The position numbers and the translations under genes were made by a program. This document shows positions 2,170-41,623 of a stretch of DNA of 64,000 nt, piece after piece. Each line of letters starts with the position of its first letter. Position 1 is the stretch's first letter. The DNA is from Minisyncoccota bacterium (GTDB lineage: Bacteria > Patescibacteriota > Minisyncoccia > Phycocordibacterales > XYD1-FULL-46-19). The notes beneath the pieces were generated by a model that was not told the DNA's origin, ran no database searches, and saw only the letters and a list, made by a program, of their open reading frames with translations. The DNA lies in assembly GCA_041665625.1 (NCBI GenBank), contig JBAYIK010000004.1, positions 26,503 to 90,502 of the forward strand. The letters run 5' to 3'.

Positions 2170-3063
2170 TTAAATGGCGATTGGCCAATCATCCGGTTTC
2201 TCCTCTTCTTTTTCGGCTGGGACCAACCCCCCGGTTTTTTGGTCGAATTCAACATAGGCGTCATTAGGGGTTGAGACTTTATATTCTTTTGCCTCTGGCT
2301 CCCTGAGTGACTTTAGATATTCATCACTTAGTTTTTTTGTCCCATCGGGATTTGTCTCTTCTGAAGCCTTCGCTATTTGTCGAGTTCGCCTAAAGCTCTC
2401 AGCTCTCTTCACTCCGTCATTGATAGCAGCTTTTTTGGTGGGTCGGTCTTGGTTATCACTCTCCCTGATGATCTTCTTGGCTTCACTAATTATTTTTTCT
2501 GAACGAATGTTTAAAGTCCCTTTACTTGAATATGCCCCTTCTCCTTCCTCGTCTATTAAGTCTATATTGTTGTTTAGGGCCTCCATTTCTTCATAAGTTA
2601 GCTGCCCCAATATAGCAAGCTTCTTTTCGGCTTTCCTCATTCTTCTTTTTGTTAGGTACCAGGCGTAGAAGATTGTAGAAATGTTGCCTGGGACGAGAAC
2701 GATATCAACATAAGGAATAAAAGCAATTAATCCGTTTAATACCCAAAAGGTGATCTTCATTTTTTTATTAAAGAGTAAGCCCTTTTTGGTAAACATAAAA
2801 ATATAGATTCCCCCACTTACAACAAGGGCAATAGCATCCCCAAAGATGGGGATGAGGCCAATTAAATCCTTGGCTAACGTTAAGGTTATGATGGCAGAGA
2901 AGGCAACATTCGCATGTCCAGCCGAAACCAGGCCATTTAACTTTTTAGCTAATTTCTCGGAGGACTCTTTTACATTAATCTTTATTCTGATATTAGACTC
3001 CTTCCCGCCGCTAGGAGACTCATCTCCAACGAGCTCATTTGCTAGGTCTCCAAATGTTGACAT
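2170..3063 (-). CDS. Membrane protein of unknown function.
   Basis: Internal hydrophobic helices followed by a charged C-terminal half. Lies in the T4SS-like operon. Confidence 0.5.
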   Translation of the reverse strand: MSTFGDLANELVGDESPSGGKESNIRIKINVKESSEKLAKKLNGLVSAGHANVAFSAIITLTLAKDLIGLIPIFGDAIALVVSGGIYIFMFTKKGLLFNKKMKITFWVLNGLIAFIPYVDIVLVPGNISTIFYAWYLTKRRMRKAEKKLAILGQLTYEEMEALNNNIDLIDEEGEGAYSSKGTLNIRSEKIISEAKKIIRESDNQDRPTKKAAINDGVKRAESFRRTRQIAKASEETNPDGTKKLSDEYLKSLREPEAKEYKVSTPNDAYVEFDQKTGGLVPAEKEEEKPDDWPIAI

Positions 3064-3076
3064 CTTTCTTTATTTT

Positions 3077-4900
3077 TTAGGCTTGTTCCCCCTGCTTTGC
3101 TGCCTGGAATTCGGCCTTAGCCTTCTTGATGGCTAAAATTTGCGATGGGTCAGAAGTGATAATTTGTTCCTCAGTATAAGAAGCTTCAATCCTAATCTCG
3201 ACACGCTTAAGGCCGGCAATAAAGATGCCATTACCAATTGGTGATTCTAGTAAGAAATACTTTTCTTCGTCGGTCAGGTTGAAGATTTGCTGAACTTGGT
3301 CAATAGAGGCTGGAGATTGTTTAAGTAGGATCTGAATTGAGGAGTTGGTGATGATAGGCATGCCGTATTGGGACTTAATGAAGTCGCCAACGTCTTGGGT
3401 GATGGTTGCAACGCCGAGATAATACTTACGACCTCTTTTAACAAGAGCATAGAGGAAGGAGGCGGTATCATCAGCCTTCATCATCCACCAGGCCTCATCG
3501 ACGACGAGGAGTCTCTTTTTAAGATTACGACGAACCGCATTCCAGATGTGGTGCATGACAATATACATAGCTACAGGTTTGAGTTCATCTTCCATGTCGC
3601 GGATAGAGAAAACAACGAATTTCTTGTTGATATCAACGTTGGTGGGTTTATTGAGAAATCCGGCCCAGGTGCCTTGGGTATATTTGAGCAATCTCTGAGC
3701 CAGGGACTCCCCTCCTTCCATTCCGGCTAAGACTAGTTCGAGGTCAGATAAAAGTGGCGCAGGCTTGTTGGTGAAGTCGGTGTCGGGGGTGATATCTTTA
3801 AGAGCATAAGTCTCAGAGATGGCGTTATCAAGGATAGAATCTTCCTCTGGGCTAAGGCCCCCAAGCATGATACGGAAGAGCCCAACCAGGTTGATGATGT
3901 TAGAACGTAAAACATCTGAAGGAGACTCGTCTTCTCGAGCAAAGGGTAAGTCAAAGGGGTTAATATGGTGCTCAGAGGTTAAAGAAATATTAAAATAACG
4001 TCCGCCGACTGCTTCGGCCAAGAATTCATACTCTCGTTCTGGGTCGATGACAATAACATCAATATCAAACATGAGGCTCCGCAGAATCTCTAGTTTAGTA
4101 GCAAAAGATTTTCCTGATCCGGATTTAGCAAAGATGACTGAGTTGTAGTTCTCTAGAGAAAAACGGTCAAAGATGACCAAGGAAGAGTTGTGCATGTTGC
4201 GGCCATAGAGAATCCCTTTATTTGAGGTGAGGTCAAAGGAGACAAAGGGGAAGATACTAGAGAGCGGAGTAGAGTTAATTCGGGTATTCACTTCTAATAG
4301 ATCGGTGGCAAAAGGAATAACGCTCTTGAAACCCTCAGCTTGTTGGAAAAGTGCCGTCTTAAGGTAAATCAATTTAGCATCTAAGATCGATCGGATATCA
4401 CCCTCGGTTTTCTCAAGTTCCTCCTCGGTATTACCATATAGAGTAACATAGAGGCCAACGCTAAACATTTTTTCTGTTGCTTGCATTAATTGGTCACGTA
4501 GATTCTCGATGTCGGCTTGAGCAGTATCAAGCATTGGATCACGAACCATCCCCTTCTCTTCCCTTGTTATTATCTGACTCTCAACCTCGGCAATTTTTTT
4601 CTGTAAGGTACGAAGAGTGACCGTTGTGTCTAAAGGGTGAACAAAAATAGAAATATCAAAGACGCTATCAAGGTTAATAATCGGAGAAAACCATTCCTCA
4701 CTTAAGAATCGGGGGTAAGAAATAACAAAGAGTGTTCGGGCTATTTTTTCACCCAGGTCAAGACTCTTCGGTGTTATACGTAGAGCGGATGGTGAAATAA
4801 TATCACGCAACTCAAGGACCCCTACTTGATAAATATCCTGGGGGAGAAGAGGAATCAGGTTCTCTTTCTTCTTGTTGCTGCTAAAAAAGGGTATATCCAT
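3077..4900 (-). CDS. virB4: VirB4/TrbE/CagE-family type IV secretion ATPase.
   Basis: Walker A motif FAKSGSGKSF and Walker B motif LLVVDEAWWM. Size and context match the VirB4 family. Confidence 0.85.
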   Translation of the reverse strand: MDIPFFSSNKKKENLIPLLPQDIYQVGVLELRDIISPSALRITPKSLDLGEKIARTLFVISYPRFLSEEWFSPIINLDSVFDISIFVHPLDTTVTLRTLQKKIAEVESQIITREEKGMVRDPMLDTAQADIENLRDQLMQATEKMFSVGLYVTLYGNTEEELEKTEGDIRSILDAKLIYLKTALFQQAEGFKSVIPFATDLLEVNTRINSTPLSSIFPFVSFDLTSNKGILYGRNMHNSSLVIFDRFSLENYNSVIFAKSGSGKSFATKLEILRSLMFDIDVIVIDPEREYEFLAEAVGGRYFNISLTSEHHINPFDLPFAREDESPSDVLRSNIINLVGLFRIMLGGLSPEEDSILDNAISETYALKDITPDTDFTNKPAPLLSDLELVLAGMEGGESLAQRLLKYTQGTWAGFLNKPTNVDINKKFVVFSIRDMEDELKPVAMYIVMHHIWNAVRRNLKKRLLVVDEAWWMMKADDTASFLYALVKRGRKYYLGVATITQDVGDFIKSQYGMPIITNSSIQILLKQSPASIDQVQQIFNLTDEEKYFLLESPIGNGIFIAGLKRVEIRIEASYTEEQIITSDPSQILAIKKAKAEFQAAKQGEQA

Positions 4901-29997: not shown

Positions 29998-30075
29998 GTT
30001 TTAGACCTCCTATTTTTCTCGCCCATGCGAGAAGCCTAATTTCTACTTCTAATTATAACTAACTTTGTACATTTT

Positions 30076-30117
30076 GTCAAAAGCAAAAGGCAGGGGTGGA
30101 ACTGGTCCACCTCTGCC
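30076..30117 (-). terminator. Intrinsic terminator after the SPFH-like gene.
   Basis: An approximately 12-bp stem, GGCAGGGGTGGA pairing with TCCACCTCTGCC, followed on the minus strand by TTTTGCTTTTG. Confidence 0.5.
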
Positions 30118-30158
30118 TCGGGTTCGGTCACGAAATTACAAAGTTGTTTCCGCCGTCA

Positions 30159-31196
30159 TTATTTGGCGGCGGGAGCTGTTGGGGCCGGTGCGGGAGCAGG
30201 AGCCTCGGGTTTCGGAGCGAACTCCTCGGGGCTGAACTTTTCGAGGTCGATGACCTCTTTCGGGTGCACCTTCGCTTCTGCCTTCGCGCCCGCCCGGATG
30301 CCGTCTGGATGAAGCATCTGTGTAAGCTGGGAATTCCCCATCATCTGTTTCATGTCCTCTACGTTCGTCCCGTAGGGGTACATAATGAAACAATTGTTTG
30401 GACCTTGCGCCGCCGACGAGAGTGCCCGGATTTGCCACCAAACCAAGTATTCAGGGGAATCTTTCAGTTCCTCCTTCACGATGCGAATTCCGCCCGCGAC
30501 GCCCTCGGCTTTCTCTTTCTCCACAAGGGCCTGGGCTTTCTCCACTTCGACCTGGCCTTGAGCACGCTCGAGATCGGCTTTGACCTCGTTCTTGGCCGCC
30601 TGTTGAAGCAACTCGGTTGCGGCCAACTTTTCTTGGGCGGCGGTGATGCTTGCCGGCCAATCATAGTTGGAAATCTCCGAGTCGACAATTGCCAGGGGTG
30701 TTGCTGCCGAGGCTTCCATCAGTTGTTTCCTGACTTCCACCCCGAGCTTCATGCTGTTCGCGATGCAGGCGTTGATGTCCGGTTGGACCTCATAAACCTG
30801 ACGCGGAATGGCCTGGGCCTTCATCTTGATAAAGGTATCGTACATCTGTTTGACCGTAATCTTGTTCTCGGCATCAGCCAAAACAGATTCGAAAGCCTTC
30901 TGCATGGCCTGCTTGTCCTCGACATTGGCCCGCACACGGCAGGTGAAATCATATTTCAGATTCACCTTGCCGTTCACGAGGATATTGAGTGTCTCGTTGA
31001 ACGCTTGGTTGGTCGTTTCCAGCAGGTAGACTTTGTCCCGCGGATTGCTCCAGTGGTTGCCCACCGGCAGAATCTCGGTACCCCAGCCACTGGGCGTCCG
31101 CACGCGCCCGATATATCCGGGCGGTACTGTGACGGTGCAACCCGCCAGTATGAACACGGCCAACATCAGCATCAGAATCTTCGCGCTTGTTTTCAT
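30159..31196 (-). CDS. Lipoprotein with an SPFH/band-7-like domain and a C-terminal coiled coil plus an Ala/Pro tail.
   Basis: Lipobox ILAGC after the internal Met (MKTSAKILMLMLAVFILAGC). Coiled-coil region rich in A, E, K and Q. High-GC codon usage. Confidence 0.45.
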   Translation of the reverse strand: MKTSAKILMLMLAVFILAGCTVTVPPGYIGRVRTPSGWGTEILPVGNHWSNPRDKVYLLETTNQAFNETLNILVNGKVNLKYDFTCRVRANVEDKQAMQKAFESVLADAENKITVKQMYDTFIKMKAQAIPRQVYEVQPDINACIANSMKLGVEVRKQLMEASAATPLAIVDSEISNYDWPASITAAQEKLAATELLQQAAKNEVKADLERAQGQVEVEKAQALVEKEKAEGVAGGIRIVKEELKDSPEYLVWWQIRALSSAAQGPNNCFIMYPYGTNVEDMKQMMGNSQLTQMLHPDGIRAGAKAEAKVHPKEVIDLEKFSPEEFAPKPEAPAPAPAPTAPAAK

Positions 31197-31278
31197 GATC
31201 TCTTTCCTCTCATTCCATCTTTGTTTTTGTGTACCTGCCGGCATCAACCGGTATGGCACGTCACGTTGCTTGTGCCGG

Positions 31279-31788
31279 CTACTTGGCCGGCGATGCAGGG
31301 CTCGCCGTTCCAGTCCGTTGCTGGATATCAGCGTCGTGCTTCTTCATCGCCTTGTCGAAGTCGCTGAGGGCGTCTTCGTGCTTCTCAGTGTCGAGCTTCT
31401 TGGCATCGGCAGCAGTCTGCTCCATCTCGGCCTTGGTCGGCAGTTGCGAGTTTTTCACTGCTTCCAGTTCCTTGATCTCGGCTGGCGACTGGTAGTGCGA
31501 AGTGCTCGTCGTGAATGACTGCTTCACGTTCCAGGCGACGTTCACCGCGGAAATGAAGCCGACGACAACGATCACTGAAATGATCGCCGGCCCGATAATA
31601 CTGGGCATCAGCTCCGTCTTTTCCGCGTCAATTGCCGTCTTGCACTTCTTGAGGAAGCTCCGCCAAATCTTGTATAGCCAGTAAGCCAGGAGGATGCCAA
31701 CAATTAGGGCCCCTCCATAGAAAATCCAGCCATACGGGTTCGTCCCCATCATGTTCATCCTGTTCTCCTTTTCTCTCTTTGGTTTCAC
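31279..31788 (-). CDS. Membrane protein of unknown function, GC-rich.
   Basis: Two or three transmembrane helices followed by a charged tail. Confidence 0.45.
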   Translation of the reverse strand: MKPKREKENRMNMMGTNPYGWIFYGGALIVGILLAYWLYKIWRSFLKKCKTAIDAEKTELMPSIIGPAIISVIVVVGFISAVNVAWNVKQSFTTSTSHYQSPAEIKELEAVKNSQLPTKAEMEQTAADAKKLDTEKHEDALSDFDKAMKKHDADIQQRTGTASPASPAK

Positions 31789-31970
31789 ACCTGTTTTGCG
31801 CAGCTCTCACTTGGCTGCATCTCTGAAAATACTAATAGAAAAAGCATCCTCAAAGATGCAGCCAAAACAACTAAGTAATTTTTAAGGAACTATTGCTGGT
31901 GCGATGATAACATAAATCATATGGCCTGTCAACATCAATCTTGCCAAAACAGAGATGTTGTGTCAATCAC

Positions 31971-32013
31971 AAAAATAGCCCCAAGGCCATGAAGTCCTGG
32001 GGCTATTTTTTAA
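31971..32013. terminator. Bidirectional intrinsic terminator with an A-run and T-run on either side of the hairpin.
   Basis: AGCCCCAAGG-loop-CCTGGGGCT, followed by TTTTTT. Lies directly after the stop of the NYN gene. Confidence 0.5.
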
Positions 32014-32970: not shown

Positions 32971-33037
32971 CCCCCACACCAACTTTTGCATTATTGGGTT
33001 TTGCGCTTTTATCGCGATGTAAAAGTTGGTGTGGGGG
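32971..33037. promoter_or_regulatory. Long hairpin of 21 bp with one G-U or mismatch and a 25-nt loop. It lies at the junction of the high-GC block and rpsO and is probably a terminator or insulator.
   Basis: CCCCCACACCAACTTTTGCAT pairs with ATGTAAAAGTTGGTGTGGGGG. Confidence 0.5.
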
Positions 33038-33137
33038 CATGCCCCCTTGTGTTGAGCATAAGAAAGGGGCCCATACTGCTGTCACGTGGTCGTGGCTAGC
33101 GCGTAGGGCCCCAGGGGGAAGAGAAACGAGAACGGTG

Positions 33138-34190
33138 TTACCACCAGAAGCTGAATCGTGCCTCAATCTTGACCGGGCTTTCCATCCCCAGGTCTTGTTT
33201 TGATGAGGCGATGGTTTTCACCGCGTCGAGGGTCAAGGTTGTTGTCCTCTTCTGGTCGAGCCAGAAGCGGAGTCCGGCGGTGGCATTGACCTCGTAACCA
33301 GTCGCACTCTGCAGGGTGACCCGGTCTATTGAGATCTCGCCTTTGTCTGACACACTGAACTGTGTTTCCTCCCAGCTTTTGGCTTGGAGGCTCCACCAAT
33401 CTATCATCCCATGAATTTCAACTCGCGGGAGGGGTTCCCAGGCGGCGAGCGTATAGCCCCCGACCAAGTCACTCGTCCTGGAGTCGTTCATGGCGAAGTA
33501 GATAGCACTCCTTAGGTACAAGTTTTCTGCCAGCGCCGCGTTGGCGTCAATGGCAAAACGTTTGTAATCCTCGGAGCACTGGAGTGTGCCGGCAAGCCAA
33601 CTTTTGCCGAAGTTCTTCTGGAGTCGGGCTGAAACTTCCAACCCTCTCCAGTTCTCTTCGCTATCGAAGGGCACTACCGAGCGCCCACCGACGTCGGCCA
33701 TGATCAGCCAGCCGTCCTCGTCTTTTGACGAATACTCAACTTGTGCACCCCAGATGAAACTTCCCGTGGGGTCACAATTCGGGTACGAGACGGTCTCGTT
33801 CAATGCAGCGATGGGGGTGGTGAAACCTCCAGCGGCAAAGAATCTCCCGACTCGGAGCTTCCAGTTCTCATCGACTTTGTACCAGGCGTTGGCCAGCATC
33901 AAATAATTTTTGCTGGTTTCTTCCTGGAACTGGGCGAAGTTGATCAGGAGCTCTGTCCCCCACCGGCCGGACTTCCCGGTTAGGTTGGAGGAAAGACGGA
34001 AGTTTGTCAGCGAGAGGTCTCGCTGTCCGTCTGTTGAGTACCCATAGGCCTGGACCAGTCCGCGCAGCTTGAGCTTTGCGAACCCCAGGTCCATTGAGTG
34101 GACGAGGCCGGGTTCGTTCTCTTGCCCCATTGCGCTAGCCACAATTGCCAGCAGACAAAACACAAACGCCAAGATCATAGACTTCTTCAT
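33138..34190 (-). CDS. Signal-peptide protein with an aromatic C-terminus (..RFSFWW). It looks like an outer-membrane beta-barrel (porin-like) protein.
   Basis: Signal peptide with cleavage site ASA-MGQ. Alternating beta-strand-like pattern. Terminal aromatic residues. High GC. Confidence 0.4.
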   Translation of the reverse strand: MKKSMILAFVFCLLAIVASAMGQENEPGLVHSMDLGFAKLKLRGLVQAYGYSTDGQRDLSLTNFRLSSNLTGKSGRWGTELLINFAQFQEETSKNYLMLANAWYKVDENWKLRVGRFFAAGGFTTPIAALNETVSYPNCDPTGSFIWGAQVEYSSKDEDGWLIMADVGGRSVVPFDSEENWRGLEVSARLQKNFGKSWLAGTLQCSEDYKRFAIDANAALAENLYLRSAIYFAMNDSRTSDLVGGYTLAAWEPLPRVEIHGMIDWWSLQAKSWEETQFSVSDKGEISIDRVTLQSATGYEVNATAGLRFWLDQKRTTTLTLDAVKTIASSKQDLGMESPVKIEARFSFWW

Positions 34191-34194
34191 GGTT

Positions 34195-35538
34195 CTATCC
34201 TTCCGTAACTGTTGCCAGTCCGGAAAGACAAAGCGTTGTGCTTGTCTGATTTTTCCGAACTAGCGCACTAATCGGCGGACCACGCGGTTTCACCGCGTTC
34301 CAGCTGAAACGCTGGAGCGGTTGCGTGATCTCTCGGAATTCTCCCTCTTCACTTTCCACATCCCCAGTCTCTTCGACCGGAGCCGTAAGGATTGCAAAGA
34401 CTTTGAACTCCTTATGAAGTGGCACCCACCTTGCGGTGCTTGCCACTTTTTCTTCGTCAGTTATCTTGTTGACGAGAGGAGCTTCGGCGACACAGGCGAC
34501 AATAGTGGGCTGCAGGGTGTCGGCGTTTCCTCTGATGTGGAACCCGAACAAAATCCCCATTACCCAAACCATGGCACAAACCGCGACCGATTGCTTCAAG
34601 ACTTGACCAGAGGCTAGGAAGGACTCCAATGCTTCATTGAAAGCAAGTAGCGGTTCTTCGACCTGACGCAGGATTGCTTGTCTCTCTGCTTCGTTCAACC
34701 TGTAGCCGAACTCTTTCCCTGACAAGTATTCTCGCTCCAATTTCTTGAAGCGGTAGGCCTTGCCAGTAGCGTTGTCCATGACGATGAACCCGATCGGGCC
34801 ACAGAGCGTGGCCTTGAGGAAGACCATTGGGCGGAGCATGAGCTCTTCCCTTAGTTTCTTCCCCGCGTACCTGATGTCCAAGAGAACAATCAGTAGAAAT
34901 GGCAAGGTCATTAACCAATACCACTTCATGCTTGTCCTGACTGCCCACCAGAATGCTCGGCCAAGGGAGCCATCGTCGTAGGCCTTACCTAGGGCCCCGT
35001 TTTCCCCGTCTCTTTCGGCGACGGCTTCACGGCACTCGTCTTCGAAGGCTTGCATCGCACAGATCTGTCTCGCTGTTTCGGTCCTTATTTCCCCTCGGAA
35101 ATCTGGGCCGGGTTGCCAACGTTCTATGTAGCTCTTTCTGATCAGGCTGTCCTTTCCCCAAACTGATTCATACGAGACCATGAAGCCCAGCTTGATCTTC
35201 AGCTGGTCGCTTCTCCAAGAAGCTTGAAGCATCTCTTTGACAGAGACACCCCCCTTCTCGATACCCTCCTGGATTCTTTGCTTGAGGACAAGGAACTCAT
35301 CTTCGGCTCTCTCTCGTTCGGGTGTTCCTTGGAGCAGGACGGGAGAATCCTCAAACTTGAGTTTCCCAATCCAGTCCCAGTTTCCGCCCAGCATGAGAGT
35401 TAGAACGATGAGCCCGGCGGAGATCAGCTTCTGCCCCCAGGGCATCTTACTGATCTTTGTTTCTAGCCGGCTCGGTTCGGTCGGTTGGTAGTTTCTACGT
35501 CGTCTGTACTCGAATTGTTCGTAGTACATTTCTTTCAC
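34195..35538 (-). CDS. Membrane protein of unknown function, GC-rich.
   Basis: 447 aa. Ribosome-binding site AGGAGGTG upstream and a TTGACA -35 element. Several transmembrane helices. Confidence 0.45.
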   Translation of the reverse strand: MKEMYYEQFEYRRRRNYQPTEPSRLETKISKMPWGQKLISAGLIVLTLMLGGNWDWIGKLKFEDSPVLLQGTPERERAEDEFLVLKQRIQEGIEKGGVSVKEMLQASWRSDQLKIKLGFMVSYESVWGKDSLIRKSYIERWQPGPDFRGEIRTETARQICAMQAFEDECREAVAERDGENGALGKAYDDGSLGRAFWWAVRTSMKWYWLMTLPFLLIVLLDIRYAGKKLREELMLRPMVFLKATLCGPIGFIVMDNATGKAYRFKKLEREYLSGKEFGYRLNEAERQAILRQVEEPLLAFNEALESFLASGQVLKQSVAVCAMVWVMGILFGFHIRGNADTLQPTIVACVAEAPLVNKITDEEKVASTARWVPLHKEFKVFAILTAPVEETGDVESEEGEFREITQPLQRFSWNAVKPRGPPISALVRKNQTSTTLCLSGLATVTEG

Positions 35539-35667
35539 CTCCTTTCGTTACGAATTTTCTCGTTTTTCTTGTCAAAGACCGAATCTCAACCGACAGGGTT
35601 GAGTTTGTGTACTCTGCATTTCTGGCATAAATTATGTAGTTTGTCAATATCAGAAAATTAAACTCAA

Positions 35668-35696
35668 GGGTCGCCGGCGACAGGCGCGGGCGACCC
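35668..35696 (-). terminator. GC hairpin (GGGTCGCC pairing with GGCGACCC) directly after a stop codon.
   Basis: An 8-bp stem. A moderate U-rich tract follows on the minus strand. Confidence 0.35.
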
Positions 35697-35697
35697 T

Positions 35698-36093
35698 TTA
35701 TCTGGCAAGTTTCCCCCTTTTTCTTTTGCTTTTCTTCCTCTTGAAATCAAGGAGAACCTTGCCGGACTCAATTGCCTTCTCTGGAGTGTACGGTCCGAAG
35801 CGAAGTGGAGAAATTGTCTCCCGGAGAAGGACTCTCCCATTCCTACCGATATACTCGATGGAACGCTTTTCCCCGTTGCATGGCCAGACGATCCAGAGTG
35901 GCTCTCCCCACCACTTCCTTATCTCGCTGAGCCCTTCTTCCCAGTCGTGTCTGTTGTTGGGGATAATGACGATCAAGTCACCCTTGATAAGGGCTAGACA
36001 ATTAAAAAGATCAGGAACGTGGTCGTCCATGTCAATTGGCCCTTTCCTAGGGGTTGTGTTATTTGAAATTGAGAACTTTCTGGTTATTAACAT
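35698..36093 (-). CDS. Hypothetical protein, GC-rich.
   Basis: 131-aa ORF with a basic C-terminal tail. Confidence 0.4.
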   Translation of the reverse strand: MLITRKFSISNNTTPRKGPIDMDDHVPDLFNCLALIKGDLIVIIPNNRHDWEEGLSEIRKWWGEPLWIVWPCNGEKRSIEYIGRNGRVLLRETISPLRFGPYTPEKAIESGKVLLDFKRKKSKRKRGKLAR

Positions 36094-36110
36094 GACATTT
36101 TTGCCTTGCT

Positions 36111-36140
36111 ACGTCAATAAAAAAGACCCGTGTCGTGGGT
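36111..36140 (-). terminator. Intrinsic terminator that closes the hammerhead-punctuated operon.
   Basis: The minus strand reads GACCC-ACGACAC-GGGUC followed by UUUUUUAUU. Confidence 0.45.
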
Positions 36141-36194
36141 CTTACGGCTCATTTATTATCCAGTCGAGCTTCTGGTTTCTGCCACAGCAGAGGG

Positions 36195-36605
36195 TTAGCG
36201 GAGGTCAAGGAGAAGCCACGCTTCAGCGATCATGTCTGGCTGGAATTCTTCGTGAATCCAGACAGCTTCCTCGCTGATGTGGCCGCCACCCATTCCTCCC
36301 GGGATGTGGTTTAGGTCTGTCGCCGGGTCGCAGTCGAATTCAGCGATCTGCTGGGTTATTGCACTCGGCGAGTAGATGTAGATGCTACTTCCCTCCCCCT
36401 CGTTGCAATCCCAGGCCACGTCATCGAGCTTGCGTGAGAGAGTGAGAATGCGGGCTCTCGGTCCGATCAGCGAGAGAGGAACGGTCAAGTAAATCTGACC
36501 ACCCCAATCACCTTCGAAGATGAGCCACCAATCAGTGAAGACGCTCTCTCGCGCCTGCTGGCAGAAACTGGTCAGCACAGCTTGCTCATGTGCGAGCGTC
36601 TTCAT
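36195..36605 (-). CDS. Hypothetical protein: cargo ORF d of the hammerhead array.
   Basis: 136 aa. AAAGGG ribosome-binding-site-like sequence about 30 nt downstream of HHR1. Confidence 0.45.
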   Translation of the reverse strand: MKTLAHEQAVLTSFCQQARESVFTDWWLIFEGDWGGQIYLTVPLSLIGPRARILTLSRKLDDVAWDCNEGEGSSIYIYSPSAITQQIAEFDCDPATDLNHIPGGMGGGHISEEAVWIHEEFQPDMIAEAWLLLDLR

Positions 36606-36637
36606 AGCGAACCCTTTCGGTTAGTTAAAGATCAATC

Positions 36638-36690
36638 CGTTTTCGCTCTTTTGAGCTCATCAGTCGAGACACACATCTCGAGAACGGGGC
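36638..36690 (-). ncRNA. Hammerhead ribozyme, type III (HHR1).
   Basis: The minus strand reads CCCCGUUC^UCGAGA-UGUGUG-UCUCGA CUGAUGAG CUC-AAAA-GAG C GAAA ACGG. The full catalytic core (CUGAUGA...GAAA) is present. Stems I and II are capped by loops, and stem III is open. Confidence 0.7.
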
Positions 36691-36742
36691 CCAATTTGAT
36701 ATCTGGTTGGGCTTCCAGGTTATAACGCTTCGGGTTTCTCAT

Positions 36743-37171
36743 TCACTCCTTCCACCGGAAGGTGGGCCTATCACTAGGCAGTTCGTATTCGGGGTGCAAT
36801 TCCTGAAATTCTTGGAATTGATAGATATAACACCCCGGAGCCATCCCGGGAATGTCATCGGGTCCAAAAGACCCTTTCTGTTTCGCCCCGGTTGTGGAGA
36901 ACTGGAGAACGAGCTTGGCGTGATCTTCTTGGAGTTCGATGTCCAAGAATTTCTCCCAGTTGACGTGGGAACAGTCGCAGGGAACAACGACACAATTATA
37001 CGTGTGCAGCTCCCGGCAATATTCCTCGCCCAAATGGTTTCCCCATTGCTCTCTCCAATTGTCCATTAGCAACAAATGGGAGTGCCCAGCCAAGCAGATC
37101 TCCACCATCTCCACGCCGCCGTTTGAACACGCGCCACTTCTGTCCCACTGCACGACTTGGGCCTTCATGAT
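36743..37171 (-). CDS. Hypothetical Cys/His-rich protein: cargo ORF c.
   Basis: The start was set at MKAQ, which has an AAAGGAG ribosome-binding site 7 nt upstream. An A9 tract lies just 5' of the ribosome-binding site. Confidence 0.45.
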   Translation of the reverse strand: MMKAQVVQWDRSGACSNGGVEMVEICLAGHSHLLLMDNWREQWGNHLGEEYCRELHTYNCVVVPCDCSHVNWEKFLDIELQEDHAKLVLQFSTTGAKQKGSFGPDDIPGMAPGCYIYQFQEFQELHPEYELPSDRPTFRWKE

Positions 37172-37584
37172 GTTTCTCCTTTTTTTTTGCGATATAAAGA
37201 ACAACTCCCCTGTGAAAGTACGACACATGTCGCGCTCTCAATAAGGGAGTCGATTTTTTTAGGATCGACTCAAAAACTTGCGATTGATTGCCCTACCTGA
37301 CGAGCAACCTGGCGTCCCTTGGGTGTCCCGCACTCTCCCGGACCCATGTTCTGGGAAGGAGTCCTTTCGGAGGAAACGTGCAACCATCTCTTTGTTTGTT
37401 ACGGGTTGTTGTGCTGCCGTATCAGAGGAGATTGGCTGTCCAGTCAGAGAGGGTGCTAGCAGCCCTCGTGGACAAGACGGCGGGGTTAAGGAATTAGCCA
37501 TTCACTTTATTATCGACAGCTTTTGTGGCATATCGACGCGGGTGACTTACCGTGACCTCACGTGCTATGGGGATCGCCTACTCC

Positions 37585-37629
37585 CTGCACCGATTTATTT
37601 TCCAAAACTGAAAGACAAATCGGTGCAGG
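37585..37629 (-). promoter_or_regulatory. Conserved 12-bp-stem hairpin accompanying HHR2.
   Basis: CTGCACCGATTT, a 21-nt loop, then AAATCGGTGCAG. Confidence 0.5.
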
Positions 37630-37654
37630 CAATCGCTTTAATTTAAAGAACAAT

Positions 37655-37709
37655 CCGTTTTCGTCATTTCTGACTCATCAGTCGAGACACACATCTCGAG
37701 AACGACGCC
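37655..37709 (-). ncRNA. Hammerhead ribozyme, type III (HHR2).
   Basis: The minus strand reads GGCGUCGUUC^UCGAGA-UGUGUG-UCUCGA CUGAUGAG UCA-GAAA-UGA C GAAA ACGG. Stem II covaries relative to HHR1. Confidence 0.75.
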
Positions 37710-37741
37710 AATTTTATCCAGATTGGCAAACTGGGCCACGG

Positions 37742-38134
37742 TTACCCGGTGCCGAACACTCGAACACTAATGCGCTCGCGTTCGGTCTCTGTTCCGTGGG
37801 CCACCCCAAGCAGGAAGACCTGCGTGAGAAGGCGTTCGAGGGCTGCACCAGCGCTTTCATCGTCAGCACTGGCGGTGCGGGCAACGGCGGCGACCAAGTC
37901 TTCGCCGGGGTTGTAATCCCTTTCCACTTTGCCGAACGCCGGCTCGTGGCACAGGATAACTTCCCCGTCGGTTTCCTTGGCGTACTCTTCACGGCTTACA
38001 CCGATCAAGTACAGGCCAACCTTGCTGTCGACCTGGGACGCAAGAACGTACAACATATCTCCCCCTTTCTTGGTGGTTTGTTGTGTCTGGCTTGCCCGAT
38101 TCATCGGCACGTCATTGTTCGGCAACATCCCCAT
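37742..38134 (-). CDS. Hypothetical protein: cargo ORF b.
   Basis: 130-aa ORF. Its stop lies about 40 nt upstream of the HHR2 cleavage site. Confidence 0.45.
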   Translation of the reverse strand: MGMLPNNDVPMNRASQTQQTTKKGGDMLYVLASQVDSKVGLYLIGVSREEYAKETDGEVILCHEPAFGKVERDYNPGEDLVAAVARTASADDESAGAALERLLTQVFLLGVAHGTETERERISVRVFGTG

Positions 38135-38640
38135 GACCTATCCCCCCCCTCTTTGTTTGTAAAGATCAAACTCCTCAGGAAACACGAGACTATCTCACAT
38201 TCCCATTAAGAGGGCCGAGTCAGGAGGACTCGGCCGAGATGAGAACCAACCATTATTTTTCTTCTGGGTTGGCCAGACTTTGTCGACAGTGTAGGCTATT
38301 CTCTTTTTACCTACCGTCCCAGGAGAGTCCTTGCCGAAGGGATAATGCATGGCCAACTCGTCGCCCTCTGATTTTTATTTCTCCCGATTATTAAATCAGA
38401 TGGGTTGTGCAGTGAGAGGTATCTCTCGGGCTCGTCAGACCCATTCAGCCCTCCTTGACGGAGAAGGGTTGTCCTTCCTGTTGGGTGCTCCCAACATTTT
38501 GGAAGTTAGAGTTTGGGGACTTACCGACACAGAGCGGATCGTGGCCTTTTGGCGACGATAAAACCGCTGGCGGACTTACTCCCTCCACCGGGTAGACCTC
38601 AGCCTACCCCAGAGTAGGTTGCTCGGGTACCTGCACGCAC

Positions 38641-38686
38641 CTGCAACGATTTATTTTTGATGTTAATCAAACGCAAATCGTTGCAG
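38641..38686 (-). promoter_or_regulatory. Conserved 12-bp-stem hairpin accompanying HHR3.
   Basis: CTGCAACGATTT, a 22-nt loop, then AAATCGTTGCAG. The C-to-A and G-to-T changes relative to the copy at 37585 preserve pairing. Confidence 0.5.
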
Positions 38687-38702
38687 GCGCAAATTCAAGG
38701 AT

Positions 38703-38757
38703 CAAACTGTTTCGTCCTTCCGGACTCATCAGGGAGAGAAGATACCCTCCGACAGTT
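38703..38757 (-). ncRNA. Hammerhead ribozyme, type III (HHR3).
   Basis: The minus strand reads AACUGUC^GGAGGG-UAUCUU-CUCUCC CUGAUGAG UCC-GGAA-GGA C GAAAC AGUU. This is a textbook minimal-plus-loops hammerhead. Confidence 0.8.
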
Positions 38758-38786
38758 ACCGGAAGGGGTTGAACCTTCCGGCTGGA

Positions 38787-38936
38787 CTACCTCGCGCTCC
38801 CTACTGGGTTGACGAGAATCCGTTTTTCGAACACCTGTTGGGATGGGTCAACAGAACCCTTGGGCCGGCCAGCCCAGGTAAATCCGGCCTTGCGCAACAT
38901 TTGGGTTGCGACTTTCTCCGCTTCCTTCTGGCTCAT
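38787..38936 (-). CDS. Small ORF a of 49 aa, the first gene of the hammerhead array.
   Basis: GGAG sequence 8 nt upstream of the ATG. Translation is MSQKEAEKVATQMLRKAGFTWAGRPKGSVDPSQQVFEKRILVNPVGSAR. Below the 60-aa threshold of the ORF track. Confidence 0.3.
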   Translation of the reverse strand: MSQKEAEKVATQMLRKAGFTWAGRPKGSVDPSQQVFEKRILVNPVGSAR

Positions 38937-39070
38937 GGATAATTCTCCTTTGGGCTGTGCCCGGTTTGGAATCCATTCCCTTCTGAGCCGCCAGACTGTA
39001 TTACTTGCTGGCTAGCTCGGAAGGAAACAGATTCACTTACCTTTCCCCTCTTTCAAGGTATCTGCTAGGC

Positions 39071-39098
39071 ATTATACTCAGAATCAGAAGTTTGTCAA
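39071..39098 (-). promoter_or_regulatory. Consensus sigma70-like promoter (TTGACA-16-TATAAT) driving the hammerhead-punctuated operon.
   Basis: The minus strand reads TTGACA (39098-39093), 16 nt, then TATAAT (39076-39071). Confidence 0.5.
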
Positions 39099-39370
39099 GT
39101 GCTTTTGACATAAAAACAAAAGTCATCACTTCGTACCCACAAAATATGGCTATAAATAAGAATATTTAGACATCATGATTTTGATAAAGTATAATGACAT
39201 TACTTAAAAACAAGTTTGTCAAAACAATTTTTATTTAAATTTTGTTTAAAATTTTTGACGCATGTCTTTTCTAAAAATATTTGAGAAGAACACAAAACTC
39301 TTATTTTTCAACAAATCTTTGCCAAAATAACAAAAATATGGCCTAAAATAAGCCATTTTGTTGAAACTAC

Positions 39371-39399
39371 TTGACAAACTCTTGCGGTCTGCTATACTT
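39371..39399 (+). promoter_or_regulatory. Consensus-like promoter TTGACA-17-TATACT.
   Basis: TTGACA at 39371-39376 and TATACT at 39394-39399. Confidence 0.5.
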
Positions 39400-39406
39400 A
39401 CACCGT

Positions 39407-39770
39407 ATGTTCTTTTGACTTTATCGTTCCCAACCAGAAGGAGGGTTTGCCATGACTGACTAGGTCGGCGCTTGAGCGTCGCCAGCTAGCCCTATCATGG
39501 CGGCTAGCTGGCGATGTTCTAGGCCCAAAGCTAGTCAAAACCTGAATTCCTGGGGCGTAACGTAAAGTGAGTCTGGAGAGTGTTTTTGCCCAAACCAAAG
39601 GAGGATCCTGAAATGGGCGACTAGGGCCGGACAGAGACCATGATTGGTCGAGATTGATCGAGGGTAACCTGGGGATACATTCCCCACGCTGCCAATTGGT
39701 AGCAGAAGAGCAAGCAAAAGGGGCCTAGCGCAGTCGTTACGACGACAAGCGGAGGCCCCAATCTTTTTTC
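39407..39770 (+). ncRNA. Candidate structured non-coding RNA of about 360 nt. Unassigned family.
   Basis: No plus-strand ORF. GC-rich relative to its flanks. A perfect 11-bp hairpin (GCCAGCTAGCC pairing with GGCTAGCTGGC) and several other stems. Ends with GGGGCCU...AGGCCCC followed by UCUUUUUU. Confidence 0.4.
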
Positions 39771-39775
39771 TCAAA

Positions 39776-40522
39776 TTATTTCTTTAGTTTATCAAAAGCT
39801 AAGCTAAAAAGGCTTCTCATCGTGTCAGCAAAGTCTTTGTTTGTTATAGAGATTGCCCCAATCTTCTTCCCCAGGATATTTATTTTTACTTTATTCTTGT
39901 AAATGGCAATGTCACAACTTAGGGGATATTTATCTTGTTCGATTTTTATTCTTTCACTTGTATTGTCACTTGGGCGGCTAGTTTTTTCTGAGGTATATAA
40001 GACTTTATTTTTTACATTTTTACCTAATCTTATTTCCCTTAGCTGGGTTAATTCTTTTTCTGTAAATGTTTCGTCAATGAGGTCTTTGGGATAAATTAAA
40101 TAAGAAATCCCCTCTTTGTCTTCAGAACTAAAGAAGTCCTGCATTGAGCTTATTATTCCTTCTCTTCCTTCAAAGTATTTTACTACCGGTCTCTCCCCGC
40201 TCTCGCGTTGGATGCTCTTGAGTTGAGGGATAATGTCAGTTAGACGTTTGGAATTCTCTTCTAAGACAACCTTCTGGCGCTCGATAAAAGATTCTAATCT
40301 CTCTGGCGGCTCGGCTTGGTAATGAGTTTTTTTATCGACTTGAATTTCACTCACTAAGCCCTTCTTGGCCAGTGTTTCTAACACTGGGTAAATGGTCGTG
40401 CGGTTTACCTTTGTTTTGTTGGCTAATTCAACGACTGAGGCGCTGTCATATTGCAAGAGAGCCACATAAACTTCGGCTTCTTTATTTGATAATCCAATTT
40501 GCTCTAAGTATTTTTCAAACAT
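39776..40522 (-). CDS. TrmB-family HTH transcriptional regulator.
   Basis: N-terminus LSNKEAEVYVALLQYDSASVVELANKTKVNRTTIYPVLETLAKKGLV, a winged-helix motif of the TrmB type. Confidence 0.7.
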   Translation of the reverse strand: MFEKYLEQIGLSNKEAEVYVALLQYDSASVVELANKTKVNRTTIYPVLETLAKKGLVSEIQVDKKTHYQAEPPERLESFIERQKVVLEENSKRLTDIIPQLKSIQRESGERPVVKYFEGREGIISSMQDFFSSEDKEGISYLIYPKDLIDETFTEKELTQLREIRLGKNVKNKVLYTSEKTSRPSDNTSERIKIEQDKYPLSCDIAIYKNKVKINILGKKIGAISITNKDFADTMRSLFSLAFDKLKK

Positions 40523-40642: not shown

Positions 40643-41623
40643 ATGGCCGATTTAAATAGACTTAAACAAGAATTCTTGGAGTATCTCGAGATTGAGAAGG
40701 GGCGCTCGCTTAAGACGGTAGAGAATTATGATCGCTATTTGATAAGATTTTTTACTCAATCTGAGGCCAAATCCCCTTCTGACATAACTGATGACGCTGT
40801 TCGGCAATATCGTTTATGGCTTAATCGGCAATCTTCTTTTAACCATACTTCTTCTAACAAAGACGGCCGAATTTCTCGTGCCGGGAGCAAGAATAGCAAT
40901 GATAATCTCAAGAAGAACACTCAGAACTATCACTTAATTGCTCTTAGGGTTTTTCTTAAATACCTTGCTCGTCGCTCTGTCCCCTCTTTGCCCCCAGAGA
41001 AGATAGAGCTCGCCAAGACGGCTGGTCGTGATCTCGACTTGATTACTGACATTGAACTCAAGAGGCTAATAGATATGCCCAATAAGGAGAAAATTGGCAC
41101 GGGCAAGAATGATCAGGTAAAAATATTGCGGGATAAGGCGATGCTTGAACTCTTTTTTTCTACTGGTTTGCGTGTCTCAGAACTTTGTTCTCTTGACCGC
41201 GATACTATAAATTTAGCCCGTGACGAGTTCTCTATCAGGGGTAAAGGAGAGAAAGTTCGTTTAGTCTTCCTCTCCGACAAAGCCCGTGATGCGATCAAAG
41301 AGTATTTAGCTAAGCGCAAAGATATGGATGAGGCTTTGTTTACAAGTCTGTCCGAAATTAATAAAACCAAGGGAAGTGACAGGCTCACTTCGAGGAGTGT
41401 CGAGAGAATAATTAAGAAATACGCTATTAAGGCGGGTATTACCAAGAAGGTAACTCCCCACACTCTTCGTCACTCCTTTGCCACTGATCTCTTGCAGAAT
41501 GGGGCAGATATTCGCTCTGTCCAGATGATGTTGGGGCACTCAAGCGTCTCGACGACCCAGATCTATACTCACGTGACAGATAAACATCTTAGAGATATAC
41601 ATAAGAAATTTCATACTAATTAG
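40643..41623 (+). CDS. xerC: XerC/XerD-family tyrosine site-specific recombinase.
   Basis: C-terminal HTLRHSFAT...LGHSSVSTTQIYTHV (R-H-R-Y catalytic motif region). Spacing matches XerC, with no IntI-specific insert. Confidence 0.85.
   Translation: MADLNRLKQEFLEYLEIEKGRSLKTVENYDRYLIRFFTQSEAKSPSDITDDAVRQYRLWLNRQSSFNHTSSNKDGRISRAGSKNSNDNLKKNTQNYHLIALRVFLKYLARRSVPSLPPEKIELAKTAGRDLDLITDIELKRLIDMPNKEKIGTGKNDQVKILRDKAMLELFFSTGLRVSELCSLDRDTINLARDEFSIRGKGEKVRLVFLSDKARDAIKEYLAKRKDMDEALFTSLSEINKTKGSDRLTSRSVERIIKKYAIKAGITKKVTPHTLRHSFATDLLQNGADIRSVQMMLGHSSVSTTQIYTHVTDKHLRDIHKKFHTN

Follow-up and report, generated by a model that had tools for sequence, protein, structure and literature searches.

A long hairpin with conserved pairing, probably acting as RNA, behind type III hammerhead ribozymes in a Patescibacteria gene array

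Hammerhead ribozymes are widespread in bacteria, and their natural role and functional context are poorly defined. The question is raised in compact form by a 64,000-nt stretch of a Minisyncoccota bacterium genome (Patescibacteriota; GenBank assembly GCA_041665625.1, contig JBAYIK010000004.1, positions 26,503 to 90,502 of the forward strand). This stretch is referred to below as the window, and all coordinates are given within it unless another locus is named. At 36100-39100, a minus-strand array of small open reading frames (ORFs) carries three hammerheads (HHR1-HHR3), two of which are followed by related hairpins (hairpins A and B). What are these hairpins, and what could they do beside a ribozyme? 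A first-pass annotation of the locus had described them as a repeated element with a 12-bp stem accompanying each hammerhead, either an RNA hairpin or a DNA cruciform, and had raised the possibility of a recombination site that defines gene cassettes.

Both hairpins were confirmed by reading the sequence at the positions given in that annotation. The perfect arms of hairpin A are CTGCACCGATTT (37585-37596) and AAATCGGTGCAG (37618-37629), and those of hairpin B are CTGCAACGATTT (38641-38652) and AAATCGTTGCAG (38675-38686). The stem is real, and its length is 13 perfect base pairs (CCTGCAMCGATTT/AAATCGKTGCAGG) rather than 12, with an imperfect extension to arms of 21 nt in hairpin A and 25 nt in hairpin B. 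A small internal loop, a second stem and a tetraloop follow, for a total of ca. 21-25 pairs. Hairpin A (37584-37629, with an outer extension covering 37580-37633) consists of 15 bp, a 1x1 loop, 5 bp and a tetraloop, and hairpin B (38637-38690) consists of 17 bp, a 2x2 loop, 6 bp and a tetraloop. The one compensatory difference described between the two copies, C:G to A:T, was also correct. Minus-strand RNA folding gave the two hairpins energies of -33.7 kcal/mol (z = -6.7) and -33.0 kcal/mol (z = -6.6), a stability that none of 200 shuffled sequences reached. The plus-strand folds are weaker (-24.5 and -29.0 kcal/mol), since on the minus strand several of the pairs are G-U. Perfect hairpins of at least 12 bp are frequent in the window (ca. 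20 sites vs 0.12 expected) and are mostly terminators; what is distinctive about hairpins A and B is their common sequence and their link to hammerheads, not stem length alone. An intrinsic terminator was considered for both and ruled out, as neither is listed in the terminator prediction (their 3' flanks are GGGAGUAGG and UGCGUGCAGG) and the array has its own terminator at 36143-36123. Rfam models gave no match over 37580-37633, 38636-38690 or the leader stretches at E values up to 10.

The ribozymes beside these hairpins are, by their sequence, real type III hammerheads. All three lie on the minus strand and have complete cores (CUGAUGA ... GAAA, an NUH triplet, closed stems I and II, and an open stem III). 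HHR3 (38704-38758) scored 46.8 bits, HHR1 (36635-36689) 34.7 bits and HHR2 (37653-37707) 32 bits, all under the Rfam gathering score of 48.5, with E values from 5.7e-8 (HHR3) to 8.8e-4 (HHR2) in a 9-kb search. Cleavage in vivo by the three is presumed, with predicted sites behind a C at ca. 38751 (HHR3), 37700 (HHR2) and 36682 (HHR1) on the minus strand. An 11-nt motif, TTGWTCYTTRA, abuts stem III in each case, as TTGATCTTT after HHR1 (36627-36635), TTGTTCTTT after HHR2 (37645-37653) and TTGATCCTT immediately 3' of stem III of HHR3 (38697-38705). The spacer between hammerhead and hairpin had been reported as conserved, which is true of this motif and not of the rest of the spacer. At one mismatch or fewer, nine copies of the motif occur in the window, and six of the nine lie in the array or the other G+C-rich island. 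Pairing partners of the motif were sought by eye in hammerhead loop I, the loop of the upstream hairpin and 16S rRNA, and nothing convincing was found. The position of the hairpins was borne out: in the minus-strand transcript they lie 3' of HHR2 and HHR3, separated from them by gaps of ca. 22 nt and 13-16 nt, respectively. The pairing of a hairpin with each hammerhead was not, as HHR1 has no copy and its motif is followed directly by an ORF.

If the hairpin is a functional element, its pairing should be traceable in relatives. These were sought with a DNA anchor composed of the hammerhead 3' half and the motif, with the hairpin excluded; the anchor replaced a protein search because the 142-aa ORF of the array found only itself in the protein collection. 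Exact-protein look-ups yielded nothing but contigs with 100% identity to the window, which represent its own strain in four samples and offered no variation for analysis. In reference genomes, the anchor located six loci, all in Patescibacteria; in metagenomes, it located 33 loci, ca. 27 of which are real hammerheads. The syntenic relative L033 is a Candidatus Vogelbacteria genome. No hammerhead-motif junction was found in viral contigs, where the first pattern gave no match and the single match of a looser pattern was not a hammerhead junction. A one-arm pattern (CCTGCANCGATTTATTT) gave 26 matches in viral contigs, all attributable to chance and none with the second arm, and blastn of phage and plasmid collections gave no match.

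Homologous arrays do carry the hairpin: homologues lie directly behind a hammerhead in three other Patescibacteria contigs, L033, L044 and L059 (two copies). In an alignment of five distinct hairpin sequences over 18 pairs, 95.6% of the cells were paired, compared with 37-47% in controls in which the 3' partner was slid by 1-3 columns. Compensatory double changes were present in four of the 18 pairs (C:G to A:U, G:C to A:U, U:A to G:C and U:A to A:U). One G-U pair was invariant, three U:A to U:G changes occurred in L044, and one pair was broken (G:A) in L059. The covariation score of 0.278 was reached by none of 500 shuffles (0.144 in shuffles). A covariance model built from this alignment gave 66-75 bits in the sense and 35-47 bits in the antisense orientation (hairpin A, 69.3 vs 40.3; hairpin B, 71.5 vs 42.7), and a scan of the window and of 34 other loci brought up no additional strong copy. 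Changes within the stem were compensated, and uncompensated decay was not seen. Neither outcome that the annotation had named as a refutation, a lack of the hairpin in homologous arrays or unrepaired loss of pairing, was therefore observed. Judged from this pattern of substitution, the pairing of the hairpin is kept by selection, and the earlier view of a functional structured element with maintained pairing is upheld.

The arrangement extends well beyond this one sequence family. In 31 non-redundant junctions consisting of a type III hammerhead and the UUGWUCYUU motif, the longest helix within 120 nt downstream had a median of 24 pairs, and 84% of the junctions had a helix of at least 18 pairs; among 536 windows taken at random from these loci, the share was 23.5% (p = 3.7e-11). 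The helix in the 26 junctions that have one starts at a median of 12 nt past the motif (range 5-43) and has a median of 25 pairs, with stems of ca. 21-37 pairs. By sequence, these post-hammerhead hairpins belong to 14 or more unrelated families, and two further multi-member families also have compensatory changes. That a structure persists while its sequence does not, at a fixed place beside an RNA-level element, speaks strongly for the structure as the thing that matters. Among hammerheads of the same loci that had not been chosen by the motif, at least 10 of 14 have a motif variant, and several again have a long hairpin. While the distance from hairpin to motif is tight, that from hairpin to start codon varies from ca. 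10 to ca. 500 nt; in several loci, such as L057, L043 and L035, the hairpin leads directly into a Shine-Dalgarno sequence and start codon. The hairpin keeps its position and orientation relative to the 3' edge of hammerhead and motif, whatever the distance to the ORF.

The same pair of motif and long hairpin also occurs behind promoters. Downstream of each of two predicted consensus promoters in the window (39098-39071 and 31932-31904) come a motif-like sequence and a hairpin of 23-26 bp, in this order. As the pair follows promoters as well as ribozymes, it sits near RNA 5' ends, whether these are initiated or made by a ribozyme. The long hairpin behind the second promoter (31808-31868, minus strand) lies ca. 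30 nt past it and has z = -8.3. The hairpin at 31.9 kb also holds a sub-hairpin and a T run, a possible alternative terminator fold.

Whether the element acts as RNA or as DNA can be judged from the two strands. In 25 non-redundant post-hammerhead hairpins, the sense strand was the more stable in 22 (mean -33.2 vs -25.2 kcal/mol, p = 6e-5), and G-U pairs numbered 91 in the sense and 24 in the antisense orientation (p = 2.5e-4). Within the sense-strand stems, A.C mismatches numbered 11, compared with these 91 G-U pairs. Such an asymmetry is not what a cruciform or a double-stranded protein site would produce; the sense-strand specificity thus suggests that the element acts as RNA. An RNA stem-loop is therefore favoured over a DNA cruciform, and of the two forms proposed in the first-pass annotation, the former is retained and the latter is not.

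The hairpin is one part of a larger junction. On the 5' side, nearly all of 29 related junctions have a stable hairpin of 6-13 bp whose end lies 0-3 nt ahead of stem III. In the window, such hairpins lie directly upstream of HHR3 (38781-38759, CCGGAAGG..CCTTCCGG), HHR2 (37727-37707, GCCAAT..ATTGGC) and HHR1 (36712-36689, GCCCAA..TTGGGC); after cleavage, each would become the 3'-terminal hairpin of the upstream message. On the 3' side, all seven copies of the family hairpin open a non-coding stretch of ca. 180-400 nt that ends in a second structured module, here called module X. The stretch behind hairpin B (38236-38636) has 83% identity to L033, and its subfamilies lack a common fold; that behind hairpin A (37271-37583) is homologous in part to L044 4711-4965. 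The idea of one conserved large non-coding RNA was ruled out for these stretches, in which no consensus fold was found across subfamilies and the length is very variable.

Module X comprises 81 nt, with a hairpin and an irregular hairpin ending in TTGWTCTTT just before a ribosome-binding site. Eight of its 19 pairs have compensatory changes, and its copies score 72-93 bits. The copies in the window, both on the minus strand, are at 38155-38235 (93.4 bits, ending in TTTGATCTTT, with the ribosome-binding site of the next ORF adjoining) and 37190-37270 (72.3 bits, ending in GTTGTTCTTTATA, then a ribosome-binding site). Others are found in L033 (1218-1297, 1793-1872 and 2654-2732) and L044 (4296-4375, 4966-5047 and 5495-5575), and a 15-kb array in L047 has ca. 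12 junctions of the X type and one true hammerhead. Directly downstream of its orthologue of the 130-aa ORF, L044 shares with the window both the 3' hairpin (GCCAAT..ATTGGC) and the motif, but module X occupies the place of HHR2. Module X aligns with hammerhead stem I and CUGAUGAG and is without stem II and GAAA; it has no Rfam match. It may represent a degenerate hammerhead, a site whose processing depends on a protein, or a ribozyme of a new kind. The motif TTGWTCYTTRA follows every module X (37193-37204 and 38158-38169 in the window) as it follows every hammerhead, and a variant at 31881-31892 follows the promoter at 31.9 kb.

Several explanations of the hairpin at the DNA level have to be weighed against this background. 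Like integron attC sites, the hairpins are imperfect palindromes of variable sequence between promoterless ORFs, the gene content of the array varies among close relatives, and a tyrosine recombinase gene lies 2 kb off and is divergently transcribed. They might thus be folded single-stranded or cruciform sites for this recombinase, marking cassette boundaries in an attC-like or Xer/dif-like manner. The recombinase (40643-41623), however, is of the Xer type (XerD 244 bits, XerC 232 bits), falls far under the cutoffs of the integron integrase models (119 bits, cutoff 265; 75 bits, cutoff 435) and has a conserved housekeeping synteny in L033 and L044. The attC core (RYYYAAC ... GTTRRRY) is matched in part by hairpin B and L033 (CTGCAAC..GTTGCAG), whereas hairpin A, L044 and L059 have ACC/GGT; AAC/GTT thus appears only in the first two, at the covarying pair. 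Conserved R/L boxes are lacking, the stems are near-perfect and without the extrahelical bases typical of attC, the arms lie 20-24 nt apart rather than the 6-8 bp of Xer sites, and the wobbles are G-U on the mRNA-sense strand. The hairpin is also missing at HHR1 and at two L033 junctions, so that it does not occur once per cassette ORF. Moreover, none of the blocks that differ between the window and L033 (window 38094-37253, L033 2800-2386 and L033 1735-1281) has its edge at the hairpin; the edges fall close to start codons and in front of module X. A cassette-defining recombination site, as the annotation had suggested, is accordingly very improbable. We give still less credit to a subterminal hairpin of a non-autonomous element, IS200/IS605-like or resembling a miniature inverted-repeat transposable element, inserted beside the TTGAT-containing motif. 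Hairpin and motif are 13-22 nt apart, as at IS608-type left ends; TTGWTCTTT follows the hammerhead and recurs where the non-coding insert ends, and the insert is polymorphic in presence. Nevertheless, the motif follows hammerheads in dozens of insert-free loci, and a target-site duplication was ruled out as the reason for its presence at both insert ends, since it follows hammerheads with or without an insert. The two copies in the window are only ca. 52% identical, both lie in the array and no other occurs in the 64 kb. The locus lacks a transposase, the far end has no hairpin to match, every copy has the same orientation relative to transcription, and the hairpin sequences are unrelated between genomes.

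Of the RNA-level roles raised in the annotation, one at the 5' end of the cleaved downstream mRNA and one as a site of processing or binding are both plausible. Among the readings at the RNA level, the one we tentatively prefer is that the hairpin might be a cis-acting, 5'-proximal structural module of a ribozyme-released mRNA, serving as an insulator or decay barrier. The composite junction would run from a short hairpin closing the upstream message through a type III hammerhead, UUGWUCYUURA and ca. 12 nt to a long hairpin of ca. 21-25 bp. The hammerhead would cut between the upstream hairpin and its own stem I, so that the downstream RNA would begin with a 5'-OH, followed by ribozyme body, motif and hairpin. 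By folding fast and locally, the hairpin could prevent mispairing between the ribozyme and whatever leader or ORF comes next, and it could block 5'-to-3' decay or nuclease scanning into the message. The 23-nt hairpin of the engineered insulator RiboJ works on this principle. We infer insulation or stabilisation, rather than nuclease cleavage, as its effect. Several points weigh against this proposal. The hairpin lies ca. 70 nt from the new 5' end, which stem I already structures, so that classical 5'-terminal protection by the hairpin would be unneeded. Five of the 31 junctions, HHR1 included, do without a long hairpin. The family hairpin always opens a non-coding stretch (180-400 nt) and could serve that stretch, not the ribozyme. 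Finally, 21-37 near-perfect pairs exceed what insulation or stabilisation needs and have the size of an RNase III substrate. This last point leads to the main rival, possible though on the whole doubtful, in which the hairpin would be processed as double-stranded RNA. A double-strand-specific nuclease or binding protein, RNase III or a different one, would recognise the stem of about two turns and cut the ribozyme body off the message or start its decay, as at the intercistronic hairpins of T7 early mRNA. The stems (median 25 pairs, at least two helical turns) would suit this, as would the architecture of the family hairpins, in which a small internal loop divides a long lower from a short upper stem. 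In addition, the module X that replaces a hammerhead is an irregular hairpin of 17-20 bp, suggesting that protein-dependent cleavage can substitute for the ribozyme. On the other hand, a second cut 30-70 nt past a self-cleaving ribozyme seems redundant, and the 64-kb window contains no RNase III gene or signature motif, which says nothing of the remaining genome. In a third reading, unlikely in our view, the hairpin would form the 5' terminal helix of an RNA of its own, 180-450 nt long, released by the hammerhead at its 5' end and module X at its 3' end and defined and protected by the hairpin. All seven family-hairpin copies do open a stretch that ends in module X. The whole unit is also present or absent before orthologous ORFs (the 49-aa ORF has it in L044 and not in the window or L033), and a short box after the hairpin (GCGCAG..CC.AAGCA) is conserved. 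Yet the interior varies from 178 to 400 nt without a consensus fold across subfamilies or an Rfam match, and in many other loci, L057, L043 and L035 among them, a ribosome-binding site and start codon come directly after the hairpin.

The preferred role as a 5'-proximal insulator or decay barrier can be compared with several known systems. Clustered hammerheads that flank genes in bacterial and prophage operons, and that cleave in vitro and in E. coli, were described by Perreault et al. (2011; PMC3088659), who proposed that they cut polycistronic RNA into gene-length mRNAs. As far as the relevant passages of that paper describe them, those arrays resemble the present one in that several hammerheads of the same orientation flank single genes of unknown and variable identity, with a tyrosine recombinase nearby. 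Unlike the present junctions, the arrays appear in these passages without mention of a long hairpin, a U-rich motif, an upstream hairpin or a non-catalytic module, and the hammerheads studied here are of type III and lie in Patescibacteria chromosomes that are not recognisable prophages. RiboJ, an engineered insulator, consists of the sTRSV hammerhead and a 23-nt hairpin (PMC8794103). The natural junctions of L057, L043 and L035 likewise place a self-cleaving hammerhead and then a hairpin upstream of a ribosome-binding site. RiboJ differs in its short hairpin, whereas the hairpins here have 21-37 pairs and a conserved U-rich motif between ribozyme and hairpin, and in the window a leader of 400-500 nt separates hairpin and ORF. 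The RNase III hairpins of T7 early mRNA are similarly irregular, span ca. two turns, lie between cistrons and define mRNA ends; here, the ribozyme already makes the cut and RNase III cleavage is only a candidate. Stabilisers of the ompA type in 5' untranslated regions and repetitive extragenic palindromic (REP) hairpins are, like the present hairpin, stable mRNA stem-loops and set segment stability within an operon transcript. Classical 5' stabilisers, however, are short and only a few nucleotides from the 5' end, in contrast to the much longer and more distant hairpin of the window, and REP elements protect upstream 3' ends.

Hammerhead arrays flanking genes were thus already known, and the composite junction of 3' hairpin, ribozyme or look-alike, U-rich motif and long hairpin appears to be new. 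In the literature searched, which was not exhaustive for ribozymes, there was no description of hammerheads in the ultra-small Patescibacteria (the Candidate Phyla Radiation), and none of a conserved hairpin, motif or non-catalytic replacement module beside bacterial hammerheads. The locus and its ca. 30 relatives place the ribozyme within a fixed set of accessory RNA parts (upstream hairpin, U-rich motif and long downstream hairpin) and offer a testable picture of how a self-cleaving RNA could cut out and outfit single messages of a polycistronic transcript. The junction is a natural counterpart of RiboJ, a part widely used in synthetic biology, and the replacement of the ribozyme by a core-less look-alike at an orthologous junction provides a way to ask what cleavage contributes.

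A wider and rather speculative extension, which we regard as improbable, is that a modular system of RNA junctions builds and expresses accessory-gene arrays in Patescibacteria. Each junction would combine a 3' hairpin, a type III hammerhead or, at the same orthologous position, the hammerhead-derived non-catalytic module X, the motif and often a hairpin of ca. 25 bp. The hairpin-headed stretches of 180-450 nt could be set free as RNAs of their own, or else units between two hammerheads that agree in stems I and III (HHR2 to HHR1, 1,018 nt) could become circular, and the junctions would serve as a substrate for ORF shuffling between genomes. Over 73 nt (36635-36707 and 37653-37725, minus strand), HHR1 and HHR2 have 84% identity; their stems I and III are the same, and stem III of HHR3 differs from theirs. 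Owing to these identical stems, the 1,018-nt RNA between the two cleavage sites could rebuild a complete hammerhead from its ends, and in principle it could self-ligate into a circle.

The array itself (36100-39100) is one minus-strand operon, predicted to be transcribed as a polycistronic unit from the promoter at 39098-39071 to the terminator mentioned above (listed as 36123-36143). The promoter is of the sigma-70 type with full consensus (TTGACA-16-TATAAT, 12/12 matches), its inferred start lies near 39064, and its region is kept in L033 and L044. Approximately 30 nt past the inferred start and preceded by the motif-like GATACCTTGAAA lies the promoter-near hairpin (38969-39034, ca. 26 bp), where a 107-nt stretch folds at -43 kcal/mol (z = -4.6) and is also kept in L033 and L044. 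The first ORF (38787-38936, 49 aa) has homologues in L033 (ORF-A) and L044 (4388-4537). HHR3, hairpin B, the first variable stretch and the first module X separate it from the second ORF (37742-38134, 130 aa), and HHR2, hairpin A, the second variable stretch and the second module X come before the third (36743-37171, 142 aa). The fourth ORF (36195-36605, 136 aa) follows HHR1 and its motif. None of the four has an assigned function, and none had a match in Pfam, PHROGs or PADLOC. The N-terminus of the 130-aa ORF, MGMLPNNDVPMNRA, is also present on a different L033 protein. In general form, this peptide, MG(M/Q)LPNND(V/I)P(M/W)NRA, occurs at 38093-38134 (minus strand), L033 ca. 1735-1775 and L044 5062-5105, with synonymous changes; the C-terminal parts behind it are homologous in the window and L044 and different in L033 ORF-C. 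It may be either a common N-terminal signal or a recombination joint within the ORF. Behind some hammerhead junctions of other loci, the cargo consists of large helicase genes (L036 3084-4885, L040 8214-9995 and L047 1664-3496), of a DinG/XPD-like type of ca. 600 aa or a DEAH/HrpA-like type of 610 aa, and most other cargo is without a Pfam domain. A further conserved leader motif, TTYACGCTCAYGG-hairpin-CCACGAGCA, stands before the ribosome-binding site in L034 (ca. 3040-3100), L037, L038 and L046, on the sense strand and after the post-hammerhead hairpin.

Upstream of the array, an AT-rich region that is kept in L033 and L044 contains inverted and direct repeats around TTGACAAA/TTTGTCAA (39089-39113 with 39356-39380, 39141-39160 with 39333-39352, and 39239-39259 with 39355-39375) and three consensus promoters across both strands. 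The neighbouring gene encodes a TrmB-like regulator (39776-40522), for which the repeats may serve as operators. Between this regulator and the array lies a candidate non-coding RNA gene of ca. 370 nt without an ORF (39405-39778, plus strand). It has its own promoter (39371-39398, TTGACA-16-TATACT with TG), starts with the motif-like GUUCUUUUGA and ends in a terminator-like hairpin. The element folds at -162.8 kcal/mol (z = -7.45), is ca. 83% conserved in L033 and L044, and contains a covarying hairpin at 39479-39514; it had no Rfam match and is not a transfer-messenger RNA.

The G+C content of the array region is 50-55%, compared with 40-45% in its flanks. The array belongs to one of two islands of 50-55% G+C (30000-32000 and 33000-39000) in a genome of 40-45%, and housekeeping genes at 32-33 kb (ribosomal protein S15 and an NYN-domain protein) interrupt the two. 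The larger island also contains a 350-aa ORF (33138-34190) with a signal-peptide-like N-terminus and a C-terminal ...FSFWW resembling that of an outer-membrane beta-barrel, which is unexpected for a Patescibacterium.

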